From a bacterium (lineage in GTDB: Bacteria; Patescibacteriota; CPR2; UBA1875; JAJYID01), in contig JAJYLR010000001.1 in the NCBI GenBank assembly GCA_021787535.1, forward strand, positions 83,648 to 147,647: a stretch of 64,000 nucleotides of DNA, given 5' to 3'. Made by a program: the position numbers and the translations under genes. Positions 22,484-61,301 of this stretch are shown here, piece by piece. The first letter of the stretch is position 1, and every line of letters begins with the position of its first letter. Under the pieces are notes generated by a model. The model saw only the letters and a program-made list of their open reading frames with translations, did no database searches and had not been told where the DNA came from.

Positions 22484-22945
22484 GTGATGAAGAAAAATAA
22501 TTTAACGTCCAAAAATGTTCTGATAGCAGTTTTAATCCTCGCGCTTTTGGCAGCGGGAGGATATGCTCTTTCACATAAAATTGAAGAACATTTTAACAAA
22601 GAGAGAACGGCAAGTGTTACACAACAAATCGATAGCAGTAAATATCAGGCAGTATTTTTAACAAACGGGCAGGTTTACTTCGGCAAACTTCAGGATAATG
22701 GCGGCGATTATGTAAAACTCACCGATATTTACTATCTTCAGAACCAAGATCAGAATAAGGTCCAGCCAAAAGATCAAAACTCTAATAATCAATCAAATCT
22801 AACCTTAATAAAGCTTGGCAAAGAGCTGCATGCTCCTGAGGATATGATGGAAATCTCACGACAACAGGTTCTTTTCTGGGAAAATATTCAAGATAACGGT
22901 AAGGTAGCTCAAGCTATCAAACAGTATAAAACGAATAATAAATAA
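22484..22945 (+). CDS. Membrane-anchored hypothetical protein (153 aa)
   Basis: N-terminal TM helix VLIAVLILALLAAGGYAL and an aaggag RBS. Confidence 0.4.
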   Translation: MMKKNNLTSKNVLIAVLILALLAAGGYALSHKIEEHFNKERTASVTQQIDSSKYQAVFLTNGQVYFGKLQDNGGDYVKLTDIYYLQNQDQNKVQPKDQNSNNQSNLTLIKLGKELHAPEDMMEISRQQVLFWENIQDNGKVAQAIKQYKTNNK

Positions 22946-22956
22946 TACATCCTGTC

Positions 22957-23035
22957 ATCCTTGGGCTTGACCCGAGGATCTAGATTCCCGCCGGAGTTTA
23001 TGCTGAGCTAGATTCAGTGCGGAAATGACAAGGGA
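22957..23035. repeat. Composite palindromic element cluster (type C-like plus type B-like variants) in the intergenic DNA after 22484-22945
   Basis: ctgtcatccttgggcttgacccgaggatc followed by gattcccgccgg...cggaaatgacaag. Confidence 0.6.
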
Positions 23036-23110
23036 ATAACAGCATAAAAAAATTGCTCACTCTCAAAACGGGCAATTTTTTATTGGCGGACGAAGTTTTT
23101 GAAAAAAATC

Positions 23111-23139
23111 TTGTGATGATGATTATGATTATCTATAAT
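23111..23139 (+). promoter_or_regulatory. Sigma70-like promoter (TTGTGA-17-TATAAT) for the first giant surface-protein gene
   Basis: ttgtga at 23111-23116, a 17-nt spacer, tataat at 23134-23139, then the ATG at 23163. Confidence 0.5.
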
Positions 23140-23162
23140 TTATTCATAACCGGAACAAGTTT

Positions 23163-26100
23163 ATGTACAGTGTGACTAAGGTATCAATTATCAAGCTTTT
23201 TATAGCAGCAGCTATCCTGATTATTGCGGGTTATCTTGCTGTTTATGAACTTACTCTCCACCAGGTGTATCAAAAATACAAAGCACAGCAAACTTCAGGC
23301 GGAAACATTCCTGTTTCAAATACTGACCTCTCCAAAGATTACGTTTCTCTAAAGGGCGGCAACCCTCAAGCCGGCGCTATCAATGTTAGCGGTGATATTG
23401 CCGGCAATGATGTCCAGGGGCAAACCATTACCTCAACCGTTCAGAATGGAACATCTCCGCTTAATGTCACTTCATCAACCTTAGTTAACAACCTTAATGC
23501 TGACATGGTGGACGGCAAGCACGCAGATGAATTAACCAAAACAACCGTAAACAATATTACAAACACTACAACAGGTGAATCTATCCAGCCGGGAACAACA
23601 GGCCAATACTACCGCGGCGATAAATCCTGGCAGACCTTAAATTCTTCTGCTGTCGGTCTTGGAAATGTCGAGAATACAGCTCTTTCGACATGGACGGGAT
23701 CAAACCAAGTTGCCATTTTAGGAACCGTCACTTCCGGAACCTGGAACGCTGGTGCAATCAACGCGGCCGGTTCTATTACCGGTACAGCTCTCCAAGGCAC
23801 ATCTCTAAACCTTGGCTCTGGCACTATTATCGCAGGAACTATCAATGGCGCAACTATCTCGGGAGGCACATTATCCGGCGGCAATATTTCAGGCGGAACA
23901 GTGCAGGGCGGAACTCTTTCTTCAACTGCCGTCAATGGCGTAACTACAGCAAATATCTTAATCAACACCGGCTCATACTCTGACCCGTCATGGCTACAAG
24001 GTCTTGCCGGTTCAAAGATTACCGGAGATATATCAGGAAATGCCAGTGGCCTTACCGGCACACCAAATATCACCGTCGGTACCATTAGCTCCGGAAATAT
24101 TACATCTTCAGGGACGCTTAGTATTACAGGAACAGGGAATTCATCGGTAGCTGGGAATTTAGGTGTTAACAGTTTACTTACGCCGGAAAGTCTTGGGCCT
24201 GAGCTCGATCCAAACCCTACGCTTGATAACAATTGTAACGGCTGGACAATAGGAGGCCCGGATTGGGTATGCCACGGCAACTATTACTCGCATGATTCTT
24301 ACGGAACCAGCTATACTTATTTAACTAATGGGATACCATCTGTAATCGGACAAGTCTATAAGCTGACTTTCACGGTATCCGGCTACTCTGCGGGAAGCTT
24401 CGATTTCTATGTTGCGGGAGATAGAACGCCTACCATAACAGCAAATGGCACTTATACTTTTTATCTTAAAGCGCGCTATGCCAATGATTGGTTCTTTCCA
24501 GAACAAACTGCGAACTCTCTTTTTGCATTAGATAACATCTACCTCGAGGCGCAAAACGCGCTACCCGTATATTCAACAATAACTGCCGGCGATGTAGTAA
24601 CAAGAGGCGGATCAAAAACTGATGTTAGGGCATTTGGCGCAAAATGCGACGGCGTGACGGATGATTCAGCTGCAATTCAAGCAGCTGAAGATAGTCTGCC
24701 TTATAACGGCGGTACGTTATTCTTTCCGGCGGGTACCTGTATTGGTCATTTCACGGTCAAATCCAATGTCCACATCATGGGCAGCGGCATTGAAGCTACT
24801 GTTTTAAAATTGCCCAATGGTGCCAATACTGACGTGATTAATACGCAAGATTTTAATAACCTAACGGGTACTGATAGTCAAAGAGGTGCCTTAAGGGTGA
24901 CTCTTGAAAATATAACTTTAGATGGCAACAAAGGTAACAATTCCAGCGGATATTGTCTCAAAAAGTACGGTGCTCAATGGAATATCCATGATACTGTTTT
25001 CAGAAACGGCGCAAGCGGAGGTATGTATGCAGAATGGGGAACTTATCTGGGCATACCTTATGGCGCTGACTCTATGGAGGATAAATGGAGTAATATCTGG
25101 GTTCATGATAACAATGGCGCTTACGCTATTTGGATGAAAGGACCCCATGATAGCGTAATGACAAACTCGCTAATATATGCAAATGCCGGCAGCGGAATTT
25201 TTATAGATCATTCAGGGAGTACGTTTAATGGCGGGGGATTAACTATCAATGATACGCATATTTGGGGCAACTCCACCACTGGTTATGGCATTCTCTCAGA
25301 TACGGCGCTTCGAATGAACGGAGATATCGTTGAAGGAGAAAGCGGCAGCGGCGGTGTAGGGATTAGGATGTACCAAAATTACGATACAGGTGTCCTTACT
25401 GCTACCAATCTCGAGATTTTTGGCAACGAAACTGGCATATTACTCGATGCAAATACCCAGAGAAACAATATTTCTGGTGTCTATGTGCATGAAAATACAA
25501 ATGGCATTAAGGTTTTAAGCAATGAAAATAACATAACCGGAGCTTTAATTACCTGGCAAACTTCAGGTACGGGCTTAATTATGGGTGACGGAACTCATGT
25601 TGTTTCCAATAACAATATTGAAGGAAAGTTTTATAATAATGCAACCAGCATTAATTGGGGCAATCCTTCAAACACTAACGATTCTATTGATGCTTTGATA
25701 TCGACATCAGGCGGACAAACTGCTCTTTCGGGTAGCCCCTCAAGCACTAACAAGTTAAATATCTTGTCAGCAGGTTCTGGCGCCAATACTTCACTTACCA
25801 ATATTGCCGGTCAATTATCCATTGAGTCCGCCCAAACCTCTGGCAATCTCACCACGATCGCAGCACCCTCTGCCGTAACTGCAACGGGTGACATTGTAGG
25901 CCAGAGAATTGATCTCCGAAGTAACTACACGATTTCTAATCATCAGGTAACAGGATCATGGCTATCTATGCCGAATGTGACAAACTCCAGTGCAACCAGT
26001 GCGTGGTACAATGCATACTATGTTGATGGCGGTTCACTGCAAAATGCCGGTATAGGCAATGATTATTGGACGGGTTTTGGTTACCAAGAACCCAACATTA

Positions 26101-28784: not shown

Positions 28785-28861
28785 TTTTGGTGTTGACGTG
28801 GGAAAAGATTATGTTTACACTGAGGTTCTATACTTTTCTAGTATGTGAAGAGATTTAATGA

Positions 28862-31800: not shown

Positions 31801-32731
31801 TGCAGTGGGTATTGATCTGCAAAGCGGAGGAAATGCCTATATAGATAATGCAGTGATCAGTTTAGGACAGAATTCGCATGGCATTAATGTTGGTAGCTCA
31901 GGGTCGGCGTTTACCGGCAGTATGATTTCTGCCAGGATTGTAGGATATACCGGAAGCAGCCCGACCGGAACCATGATCAATTGGGCTAATGCCGGAGATG
32001 CCAACAACAACTTAACAGCCACAGTTTCGACACATACGGGAGAAACCGCTCTTGCAGGCAGTCCCGCAGCAAGTAATGAAATTAATATTTTATCAACAGG
32101 GACTGGGACAAATGCGAATTACAAAAACTTCTCAAGCGCCAATAACGTTGGGGTTGGGGTAATTAATTCTCAAAACAAGCTTAGCGTTAATGCTCCTGTT
32201 ACGGCTGACACGCTGGCAACCACGATAATTACGCCAACTGTGGCTTCGAACAAAGGTTTAGTAGTGCAAGGTTATACTTCGCAAACTGCTGACTTGATCC
32301 AGGCGCAAAGTTCACTAGGAGCCGTGTTATTTAAGATTGACAACTCGGGTAACTTGGCGGCTAAAAGCGCAACCTTCACCGGCACATTGACTATGAACGG
32401 TCATATTATTACCGGAAACTCAATCGGTTCGACGACGATTGCCGCCGGAGCTAATGCAGGAACGGGAGCCACGGCAACAATCAGTGGAAACGACACTTCG
32501 GGGACTATCACAGTGACGACTGGAACCGGCCCGGCTGCGGGAACTTTGGCAACTATTACATTTGCCGGTACCTATGGCTCGGCACCAAGAGTGGTTTTGA
32601 CACCAACCGGCGCAAATGGCGCAACTCTGCAATATTATGTCGGATCCACAACCACAACATTTACCTTATCTAGCGGTACGGCACCGACGGCTTCAACCGC
32701 CTACACCTACAATTATCAGGTAATGCAGTAG
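28862..32731 (+). CDS. Giant surface protein paralog (1289 aa) with the same N-terminal anchor, a shared conserved ~300-aa N-domain, a pectate-lyase-type beta-helix and a shared C-terminal domain
   Basis: VRAYGAKGDGKTDNTAAIQAAEDSLPDQGGTLYFPSGTF. The N- and C-terminal regions align with the upstream gene. The genes are in tandem with a 77-bp spacer. Confidence 0.8.
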   Translation: MYNPTKSTLIKIFSLISILILCGFLLVYELTIHEVNQKYKNQQSSQGNISLSTSDLSKDYVSLKGSNPQSGNINLEGNISGNDVQGQTITSTVQNGTSPLNVTSSTLVNNLNADMVDGKHADELTKTTVNNITNTTTGESIQPGTTGQYYRGDKSWQTLNSSAVGLGNVENTALSTWTGSNQVAILGTVTSGTWNAGAINAAGSITGTALQGTSLNLGSGAITSGAINGQTISSSANFTGTITAGGTINGATISGGTLSGGNVSGGTVQGGTLSSTAVNGVTTANILVNTGSYSDPSWLQGLAGSKITGDIQGNASGLTGSPNITVGTITSGNITSSGTLDITGTGDSTVGGNISVNPDFGSELTTNGNFNGSANNWLVSCTDYSSGSTACNTADTPNSVPASGWSYGSNSVSHASGTNNTDALYQDISNTAGETYGSNIITDSNFSLNPATNGWDWMDAGWHWVNNTAMTNAGGAYFGDDLGTSLTAGLYKVQFSTSGMPAGGQLKVALSSGGISEDAAVVSGNGQHTFYFTVGTTPETGGWPYYLYFDSTSVGTTIDNVSAQLVTGAQFGESQTQSYKVSFAVSGMTAGSLSANLGGVGGSPITANGTYTQYLIGKPNANIISFVPSHDAVFTLSNISVTPVQNGTITVQDIITKGGPKVDVRAYGAKGDGKTDNTAAIQAAEDSLPDQGGTLYFPSGTFLGHVTLKSNVHVEGAGINATILKLPNGANTDVIASKDFASLTGNTTNRDGVNRVTLDDITIDGNAGNNTAGYGVRKYGGQWNVHDVVIKNCAQDGVYSEWGSYGGAPLVADSMEDHWTNIMLTVNSGSGMTWNGPHDSVLDNFIVSSNSGNGINFENASGGVANGTQLKNSHIWGNSSTGYGLWIKTSINLDNDIVEGATGTGGIGIYVDSGGAILANGLQVYACETGVYISGVSPGGNNEITGITLSTITKANIVIYSAWSVRITGATISISSNSSSAVGIDLQSGGNAYIDNAVISLGQNSHGINVGSSGSAFTGSMISARIVGYTGSSPTGTMINWANAGDANNNLTATVSTHTGETALAGSPAASNEINILSTGTGTNANYKNFSSANNVGVGVINSQNKLSVNAPVTADTLATTIITPTVASNKGLVVQGYTSQTADLIQAQSSLGAVLFKIDNSGNLAAKSATFTGTLTMNGHIITGNSIGSTTIAAGANAGTGATATISGNDTSGTITVTTGTGPAAGTLATITFAGTYGSAPRVVLTPTGANGATLQYYVGSTTTTFTLSSGTAPTASTAYTYNYQVMQ

Positions 32732-32732
32732 G

Positions 32733-32772
32733 CAAGCAACCGCTTGCTTGCTTTTACAAGGACAGTCCTTGT
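32733..32772 (+). terminator. Tandem hairpins after the giant gene: gcaagcaa-ccgc-ttgcttgc followed by TTTT, then the 17-nt perfect palindrome acaaggacagtccttgt
   Basis: Inverted repeats read directly from the sequence. The second palindrome is a member of a recurring gene-end palindrome family (also at 33875, 58092 and 61281). Confidence 0.55.
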
Positions 32773-32780
32773 TAAAATTC

Positions 32781-32849
32781 TGTATAGATGCTTGAGTTTT
32801 TGTATAGATATTTGACATTTTGTATAGTTTTTGATAGTATATCTATACA
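32781..32849 (+). promoter_or_regulatory. Promoter (TTGACA-17-TAGTAT) carrying three direct TGTATAG(A) repeats and an inverted CTATACA. A candidate operator array for the downstream MerR-type regulator.
   Basis: tgtataga at 32781 and 32801, tgtatag at 32821 inside the spacer, ctataca at 32843. ttgaca at 32812-32817 and tagtat at 32835-32840. The ATG at 32852 implies a leaderless or very short leader. Confidence 0.5.
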
Positions 32850-32851
32850 AT

Positions 32852-33574
32852 ATGAAAAATAACAAAAAATTGATGCCGATCGGAGAAGCAGCTGATTTCC
32901 TGGAGGTATCGGTTATGACCCTCAGGCGTTGGGATGCTTCCGGAAAACTGCCGGCGCTCAAAAAGCCCAGCGGCCACCGATATTATGAACGCGAAGCGCT
33001 TGAGCGGTTTCGCGAGGATATTTTTGGCTTGGCGAGAACATGGGCGGGCAGCGAGACAGCCCCCGATATTCCAAAAGATTACTACTGTGAAACTCAGGAT
33101 CGCTTTCGCGCTCGGCTTGAACATATGGCAATACTTGCCAGCCAAAAATCCGGGGTATCCGAAGCCGTCCCGATTTTAACAGCTGTGGCGGGAGAAATCG
33201 GCAACAATTCCTTTGATCACAACTTGGGAAACTGGCCTGACGTTCCCGGCGTATTTTTTGTCTATGACACCAATAAGCGTATAATTGTGTTGGCGGATCG
33301 CGGAGTGGGCATTAAGGGAACACTGTCAAGGGTTCGTCCAAATTTAAAAGATGACATTGACGCTCTGACTGTCGCGATGACTGAGCGCATATCGGGGAGA
33401 TCGCCGGAACAAAGGGGAAACGGTTTAAAGTTTGTAGTGAGTGTTACAGCGGAAAATTTGATTAAGGTAACTTTACAATCAGGAATAGCAGTCGCCACTA
33501 TTGAAAGAGGCAAGGCGCACATCTCTCTGGCTGATCGCAATATTCGCGGAGTATTAACTAAGGTGGAGTATTAA
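32852..33574 (+). CDS. MerR-family HTH fused to a GHKL-type ATPase/serine-kinase-like domain (anti-sigma-factor-like). The ORF-track start at 32831 is a TTG; the ATG at 32852 is preferred.
   Basis: The HTH PIGEAADFLEVSVMTLRRWDASGKLPALKKPSGHRYY fits the MerR pattern. The N-box EIGNNSFDH, G1 DRGVGI and G2 GNGLKFV resemble SpoIIAB/RsbW-type GHKL motifs. Confidence 0.55.
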   Translation: MKNNKKLMPIGEAADFLEVSVMTLRRWDASGKLPALKKPSGHRYYEREALERFREDIFGLARTWAGSETAPDIPKDYYCETQDRFRARLEHMAILASQKSGVSEAVPILTAVAGEIGNNSFDHNLGNWPDVPGVFFVYDTNKRIIVLADRGVGIKGTLSRVRPNLKDDIDALTVAMTERISGRSPEQRGNGLKFVVSVTAENLIKVTLQSGIAVATIERGKAHISLADRNIRGVLTKVEY

Positions 33575-33576
33575 CG

Positions 33577-33840
33577 ATGAAAATTGAACTTAAAAAATTC
33601 GGATTGGTTTTGACCTCTAGGCCGGCAGGCAAGGAAGCATTTGCGGCCATCCGGCCAACTTTAGATCTTAACGCTGATAAGGTAGAAGTTGATTTTAGCG
33701 GAATAATCTCTCTGTCCCCATCATGGGCCGATGAGTTTTTTAAGGGTTTGGAAAGTTTGTATGGAGATCGTGTAATCTATCTTCCGAGTGATAATCCGTC
33801 CGTAAAGGCCACTCTCAAAATCCTTCAAGACGAAGAGTAA
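33577..33840 (+). CDS. STAS-domain protein (anti-sigma-factor-antagonist-like, DUF4325-like). Putative partner of the upstream GHKL protein.
   Basis: 87 aa. VEVDFSGIISLSPSWADEFF resembles the SpoIIAA-type STAS core. Its start is 3 nt after the upstream stop. Confidence 0.5.
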   Translation: MKIELKKFGLVLTSRPAGKEAFAAIRPTLDLNADKVEVDFSGIISLSPSWADEFFKGLESLYGDRVIYLPSDNPSVKATLKILQDEE

Positions 33841-33874
33841 ATATTGTCTCATTTTAAACATCGTGGTTGCTTTT

Positions 33875-33891
33875 ACAAGGACTGTCCTTGT
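33875..33891 (+). terminator. Gene-end palindrome acaaggactgtccttgt (family member, opposite central base)
   Basis: A perfect 17-nt palindrome 35 nt after the STAS stop. Confidence 0.45.
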
Positions 33892-33947
33892 TGAAATTGT
33901 ACACATTGTTTTTGAGGCTTTGTTGTGTTTTGGTATTTTTAGATTCT

Positions 33948-58091: not shown

Positions 58092-58127
58092 AAGGACAGT
58101 CCTTGCATTCTAGAAGGACTGTCCTTA
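58092..58127 (+). terminator. Pair of gene-end palindromes (aaggacagtcctt ... aaggactgtcctt) after the RpfB-like gene
   Basis: Same core as 32756-32772 and 33875-33891. Confidence 0.45.
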
Positions 58128-60672: not shown

Positions 60673-61301
60673 TTAAGACGATTATTTTTGACAATCACGG
60701 AGTTATTACATCGAGTACTGCGGAAGGAGCAGACGAAAAGTTCGCCGATTTTTTGGGCGTGGACCTCGACCGGTTTAACAAGGTCTGGGGCAGCTTAGAA
60801 GGCATTGTCGATGAAGGGAAAATGACTAGTGATGATTTTTTAAAAAATCTTTTACACAGAACAAACTGCCATAAAGATTTATCGGATTTTAAGAAGATCT
60901 ATTTTGGAAGCTATTTCCCGAAACTTGATGTCCAAGATTTTGCCAAAGAACTGGGCAAAAGCTTTGAAATCGTCCTGCTTACAAACTACGGCGACAGTTT
61001 TCGTTATGTTAACGGCAGAAGCTGGCACCTAGAAAAAATATTCGGCGATAAAATATTTGTTTCAGCCGAACTGAAAATGAGAAAGCCCCATAAAGATATT
61101 TACCAGTATGTTCTGGACAAAATCGGGAAGAAGCCGGAAGAAACTGTATTTATCGATGACAATCCCAAGTTCATAAAAACGGCGAAAGAACTCGGAATGC
61201 ACACTATTCTTTTTGAGTCGCTTGACCAGGTCAAAAAAAATCTCGAAGAAATATTAGTTTCACAAGGGCAATCTCTGCAGACACAAGGTCTGTCCTTGTA
61301 G
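60669..61301 (+). CDS. HAD-superfamily hydrolase
   Basis: Motif I TIIFDNHGVI and motif IV FIDDN. Its start overlaps the stop of the upstream gene. Confidence 0.65.
   Translation: MIKTIIFDNHGVITSSTAEGADEKFADFLGVDLDRFNKVWGSLEGIVDEGKMTSDDFLKNLLHRTNCHKDLSDFKKIYFGSYFPKLDVQDFAKELGKSFEIVLLTNYGDSFRYVNGRSWHLEKIFGDKIFVSAELKMRKPHKDIYQYVLDKIGKKPEETVFIDDNPKFIKTAKELGMHTILFESLDQVKKNLEEILVSQGQSLQTQGLSL

Follow-up and report, generated by a model that had tools for sequence, protein, structure and literature searches.

A putative self-regulating module of Patescibacteria that pairs a DNA-binding GHKL kinase with a STAS protein

Patescibacteria (CPR) have tiny cells, very small genomes, and few recognizable regulators, and to our knowledge the ways in which they control their genes are almost wholly undescribed. 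In a 64,000-nucleotide stretch of one such genome (the window), two genes, here A and B, lie beside genes for giant surface proteins, which raises the question of whether the pair regulates its large neighbors or serves a purpose of its own. A sequence-only reading had favored the former. We consider it probable that A and B form an autonomous, self-regulating two-gene signaling module of Patescibacteria, in which a DNA-binding GHKL serine kinase (A) works with a STAS substrate or partner (B), and the position beside the giant genes is incidental to one species. An HTH-GHKL kinase and STAS pair in this form is so far undescribed. We found no description of it in the literature, where DUF4325, the family of B, receives single passing mentions and is absent from the paper on CapK/CapS and VapK/VapS/VapC (Chambers et al., EMBO J 2026; PMC13373217).

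Two genes, their domains, and the edges of the locus

The first part of gene A (32852 to 33019, plus strand; residues 1 to 56) encodes a winged HTH of the MerR/BldC type with a recognition helix at residues 21 to 30, in which M22 is the putative specificity-determining position. This domain matches Pfam PF00376 (MerR HTH; E 4.7e-10, 39.5 bits against a cutoff of 28.2) and PF13411 (31.8 bits against 21.6), while its score of 25.9 bits against NCBIfam HTH_BldC lies far under the 77-bit cutoff. The remainder of the gene (33020 to 33574, plus strand; residues 57 to 240 and the stop codon) encodes a conserved helical extension (W64, S67, D83, F85, and R88) followed by the kinase domain. According to AF2 secondary structure, residues 57 to 110 form three helices that are not a STAS domain, and no long helix follows the HTH; a MerR effector domain is likewise missing.

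Profile searches of A against Pfam, NCBIfam, and PDB returned the HTH only and no GHKL match. The GHKL catalytic motifs, namely, the N-box (E115/N119), G1 (D149-x-G151-x-G153), and the lid/G2 region (S181-G-R-x-P-E-x-R-G-N-G-L-K193), are invariant across 43 homologues. In profile comparison they stand in the correct register with E46/N50/D81/G83/G85 of SpoIIAB, although the alignment itself is not significant (hhalign E 0.56). The GHKL assignment is rescued by the fold match and by a comparison with CapK (E 0.0021); both it and the STAS assignment of B rest on fold searches and the CapK/CapS comparison. On this basis, the kinase of A is a GHKL (Bergerat) fold with N, G1, and G2 ATP-binding boxes.

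Gene B (33577 to 33840, plus strand) begins shortly after the stop codon of A, as had been noted, with an actual gap of 2 nt rather than 3 nt. It encodes an 87-aa protein that consists of a STAS domain only. The suggestion that it is DUF4325-like was borne out by a Pfam match at E 5.3e-7 to this STAS-like family (PF14213; 29.7 bits, gathering cutoff 23), and its homologues carry the same annotation. Ser49, the predicted phospho-acceptor, is invariant (79/79) and forms part of a [ST]-P-S-W motif at the N terminus of helix 2. The domain calls made from the sequence alone, an HTH joined to a SpoIIAB/RsbW-like GHKL domain and a STAS partner, thus hold up in fold searches.

On the left, the module is marked off by an intrinsic-terminator-like hairpin with a T-run (32727 to 32751, plus strand; terminator scan), which lies outside the module and ends the upstream 1289-aa gene; the RNA fold of 32725 to 32785 reaches -23.3 kcal/mol (z -4.5). 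A repeat search found a 42-nt direct repeat on both sides of the two genes (32738 to 32779 and 33857 to 33898, both plus strand; 86% identical), and homology between strains starts at its left copy. The copies hold the palindromes ACAAGGACAGTCCTTGT (32756 to 32772) and ACAAGGACTGTCCTTGT (33875 to 33891), which had been described as identical and as bracketing the module. Neither description can be kept: the central base differs between the copies, and the motif is dispersed in the genome, with five copies of the pattern against 0.01 expected (pattern search). The core, AAGGACNGTCCTT, occurs again at 58092 and 58114, with a one-mismatch copy at 61285, each time between unrelated housekeeping genes, so the palindrome is not module specific. 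As a clear terminator, the palindrome was rejected, since it folds into no more than a weak hairpin of 7 bp and has no U-tract (z for the right copy, -0.02). An integron attC site or a target-site duplication seems unlikely as well, given the shortness of the element and the mismatch between its GTTAAAA/GTTGAAA and the attC consensus GTTRRRY. An Rfam scan of the whole window gave zero matches.

Operator repeats and a candidate recognition code

The pair is preceded by a predicted sigma-70-type promoter (32812 to 32840, plus strand; promoter scan) with TTGACA, a 17-nt spacer, and a TG-extended TAGTAT at 32835 to 32840 (10/12 matches, with TG), an architecture found again in relatives. Because the ATG follows only 12 nt after the -10 element, the transcript is predicted to be nearly leaderless. 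Three direct copies of the putative operator, (T)TGTATAGAT/TGTATAGTT, lie on the plus strand between 32781 and 32829, starting at 32781, 32801, and 32821 with a period of 20 bp; the second copy abuts the -35 element and the third falls within the -35/-10 spacer. An inverted copy, TTGTATAGAT on the minus strand (32841 to 32850, with TGTATAG at 32843 to 32849), lies between the -10 element and the start codon. The three direct TGTATAG repeats had been recognized correctly from the sequence, but the inverted copy had been assigned to the -35/-10 spacer and sits just past the -10 element. It is conserved in close relatives only and covaries as ATCTATGCA in locus L011. Four of the eight TGTATAG copies in the 64 kb are at the A-B promoter, and a paired operator is found within the window only at this promoter.

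This arrangement is widely conserved. At least two direct operator copies are present upstream of A in 64 of 80 loci, each from a different species, versus 1 of 831 control upstream regions, and the spacing of copies in orthologous promoters peaks at 20 to 21 bp. An operator copy overlaps the predicted -35 element, spacer, or -10/+1 region in 57 of these 64 loci. Operator pairs are nearly confined to the modules' own promoters, with 99 there and just 3 at other places within 853 kb. The repeats are missing upstream of kinase variants that lack the MerR-type HTH, which serve as natural negative controls; three of these variants have no HTH at all, one has a wHTH, and one is a STAS-GHKL protein.

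Variation at operator base 3 tracks residue 22 of A (mutual information, 1.17 bits; next-best column, 0.74). A T-type base 3 accompanies M, Q, A, or T at residue 22 in 28 of 28 cases, a C-type base 3 accompanies D in 41 of 42, and the GGTAG-type operator, with G at base 3, accompanies N in 4 of 4. There were at least 12 independent switches, counted on a tree for which only the kinase half of A was used. Together, the conserved position and spacing and this residue-base covariation strongly support the earlier proposal of an autoregulatory operator, in that the TGTATAG repeats appear to be a conserved site through which A would control its own operon. Since they overlap the -35 element, spacer, or +1 of the A-B promoter, A most likely represses rather than activates this operon, judging from operator position relative to the predicted promoter. 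Read as a candidate code, thymine at base 3 would call for M, Q, A, or T at residue 22, cytosine for D, and guanine for N; the code and the defined operator are open to testing by EMSA, specificity swaps, and kinase assays planned straight from the sequence.

Distribution of the pair and its possible output

At least 553 species genomes carry the A-B pair, and almost all of these bear the label Patescibacteria. Gene B directly follows A in all of the 80 species loci (80/80), the pairing is equally strict for four architectural variants of the kinase, and the proteins are unusually conserved, retaining 45 to 81% identity between the named candidate phyla that were sampled. Even close relatives differ in genomic context. 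All-against-all clustering of 719 neighboring ORFs found no conserved neighbor family in more than 8 of the 80 loci except long B forms. Housekeeping genes make up most of the neighbors, represented in the window by genes of glycolysis, for a phosphoribosyltransferase, and for a ClpB-like ATPase; AbiE-type and T4SS/ICE genes occur occasionally. There is no sigma factor gene among the scanned ORFs of the 64-kb window, and no PP2C phosphatase gene in the window or as a recurrent neighbor in the 80 loci, so a partner-switching circuit is incomplete as seen.

These comparisons bear directly on the idea that the pair regulates the adjacent giant surface-protein (adhesin) genes under the control of phosphorylation or a partner switch, an idea that we now regard as very improbable. 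The pair does begin 121 nt past the second giant gene in this species, and near-identical strains retain a large upstream ORF. In the 80 other species, however, tblastn with all window proteins found no giant-protein homologue within 10 kb of the pair, and an adjacent ORF of more than 1000 aa occurs in only 2 of 80 loci. The regions upstream of the giant genes (22945 to 23163 and 28785 to 28861) have no operator pair, and the related motifs that had been pointed out there are single partial matches at chance level. The terminator stands between giant gene and module, and between strains the upstream sequence diverges while the module is identical. With unrelated contexts and no operator at the giant genes, the proposed link is contradicted in the way that the sequence-only reading itself had specified, and this negative result removes an appealing yet unsupported connection.

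How the module might work can be outlined from its parts. Protein A would combine sequence-specific DNA binding with the activity of an anti-sigma-type (GHKL) serine kinase. Its BldC-like HTH would bind direct repeats TG-N-ATAG(A/T)T two helical turns apart, with residue 22 of the recognition helix reading base 3 of each repeat. From the fold, the invariant catalytic residues, and the analogy with SpoIIAB/SpoIIAA and CapK/CapS, we infer that A has kinase activity, binds ATP, and phosphorylates B on Ser49 and that B alternates between being bound to A and being phosphorylated and released. By the same analogy, B would affect DNA binding by A, and its switching would alter operator occupancy, giving a homeostatic loop. 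Candidate inputs are the ATP/ADP level, a ligand of the conserved extension at residues 57 to 110, and an unlinked phosphatase. A regulon consisting of the module's own promoter only leaves the physiological output unexplained. One tentative extension, possible though not the likeliest outcome, is that the pair is a minimal partner-switching circuit with DNA in the role of the sigma factor, used Patescibacteria-wide, possibly as an ATP/ADP sensor and with further genomic targets. B would then compete with or stabilize promoter binding by A, depending on its phosphorylation state, and this could hint at the role of the unexplained HTH in CapK-type kinases.

Alternatively, transcription may not be the output at all: the HTH would hold A and B at constant levels while B (or A) acts on an unlinked protein target. 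There is precedent, as phosphorylation of VapS ends its inhibition of the toxin VapC, and the partners of SypA and MlaB are likewise not sigma factors. The near confinement of operator pairs to the modules' own promoters, with none elsewhere in the window, fits this explanation, as do a weak match of the B profile to VapS (E 0.044) and a second, B-only copy behind a copy of the A-B promoter in locus L052. Moreover, kinase variants without any DNA-binding domain retain their DUF4325 partner, which indicates that the kinase-STAS pair works without the HTH. Set against this are the missing conserved third gene beside the pair and the small size of B, which at just 87 aa has neither the C-terminal effector-binding tail of VapS nor the wHTH of CapS; the operator search, furthermore, covered flanks of about 10 kb, and more distant sites in the same genomes are possible. 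We think an unlinked target rather unlikely.

We give still less credence to a toxin-antitoxin-like or antiphage defense/addiction module, related to CapKS and VapKSC and moving between genomic sites. Its attraction is that the kinase and STAS profiles are most similar to CapK and CapS, which regulate immune operons (PMC13373217), that the PADLOC model mad1 recognizes the HTH (E 8e-14), and that the operon is tightly coupled, autoregulated, and flanked here by the 42-nt direct repeat; the variable context among close relatives and the occasional AbiE-type and T4SS/ICE neighbors would also suit mobility. Yet the pair contains neither a toxin nor an effector domain, a conserved third gene is missing, housekeeping neighbors predominate, protein conservation is unusually high, and A lacks the STAS domain that makes the ssDNA-sensing groove of CapK. 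No relatives were found in 2.9 million viral contigs, and 72,556 plasmids gave HTH-only matches. PADLOC-DB returned no multigene defense system, only the mad1 HTH and a weak DrmA fragment, and no match for B. The autonomous, self-regulating module remains our preferred reading.

Comparison with known systems

In SpoIIAB-SpoIIAA and RsbW-RsbV modules, the kinase sequesters a cognate sigma factor, usually encoded in the same operon, and a PP2C phosphatase resets the STAS protein. The A-B pair shares with them a GHKL kinase and a single-domain STAS antagonist with a conserved Ser, but it has no linked sigma factor or PP2C gene, its kinase is fused to a DNA-binding domain, and the sequence similarity of A to SpoIIAB and of B to SpoIIAA is not significant (hhalign E 0.56 and 0.61). 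Classical MerR proteins dimerize through a long antiparallel coiled-coil helix, carry an effector domain at the C terminus, and use a palindromic operator within a spacer of 19 to 20 bp. A resembles them in its above-threshold Pfam MerR HTH and in having one operator copy in the -35/-10 spacer; it lacks the dimerization helix and effector domain, and its operator consists of direct repeats. The DNA-untwisting mechanism of MerR is not expected here, as the spacer has the optimal 17 bp and not 19 to 20 bp.

BldC of Streptomyces offers a further parallel for the HTH. This MerR-like, stand-alone protein of 68 residues binds adjacent direct repeats of about 9 to 10 bp head to tail, with Lys26 and Arg30 as its two major-groove base-contacting residues and Trp31 as a further DNA contact (PMC5859096). 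R26, W27, H42, and R43 of A correspond to the DNA-contacting R30, W31, H46, and R47 of BldC, and the covarying residue 22 corresponds to the base-contacting Lys26; the putative targets of A are, like those of BldC, direct repeats rather than palindromes. A differs from BldC in its fusion to a kinase and in the distance between its sites, for the most part 20 to 21 bp.

The closest described system is CapK/CapS. CapK is an HTH-STAS-GHKL protein whose internal STAS domain forms an ssDNA-sensing groove, and CapS is a STAS-wHTH repressor that binds palindromes; mutation of N218 abolishes CapK activity, S54 is the mapped phospho-site of CapS, and deletion of the CapK HTH has no phenotype (PMC13373217). 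The kinase domain of A (set A1) aligns with CapK over 93 columns, in the GHKL part only, with N119 opposite the catalytic N218 (hhalign E 0.0021), and P0321, a STAS-GHKL relative of A, matches CapK by BLASTP (1e-6). The B set built from database homologues (A3) aligns with the STAS domain of CapS at hhalign E 9e-5, with Ser49 opposite phospho-Ser54. Judged from these alignments, the homology to the CapK/CapS kinase and STAS domains is distant. Both systems have an anti-sigma-like GHKL kinase gene followed at once by a STAS gene, an autoregulated operon, and an N-terminal HTH on the kinase. They differ in that A has no STAS domain, hence no STAS/GHKL groove for ssDNA, and that B has no wHTH. 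CapKS is found in Proteobacteria upstream of immune operons (CBASS, Bub, Thoeris, and others) (PMC13373217), whereas the present pair occurs in Patescibacteria without a conserved neighbor, its downstream genes being unrelated housekeeping genes that differ by locus. In this pair, the DNA-binding domain is on the kinase: the HTH of A is the sole DNA-binding domain, and comparative evidence suggests that it reads direct repeats. The CapK/CapS kinase-substrate family would thereby be extended to a form in which the DNA-binding function has shifted onto the kinase, which bears on the unexplained HTH of CapK.

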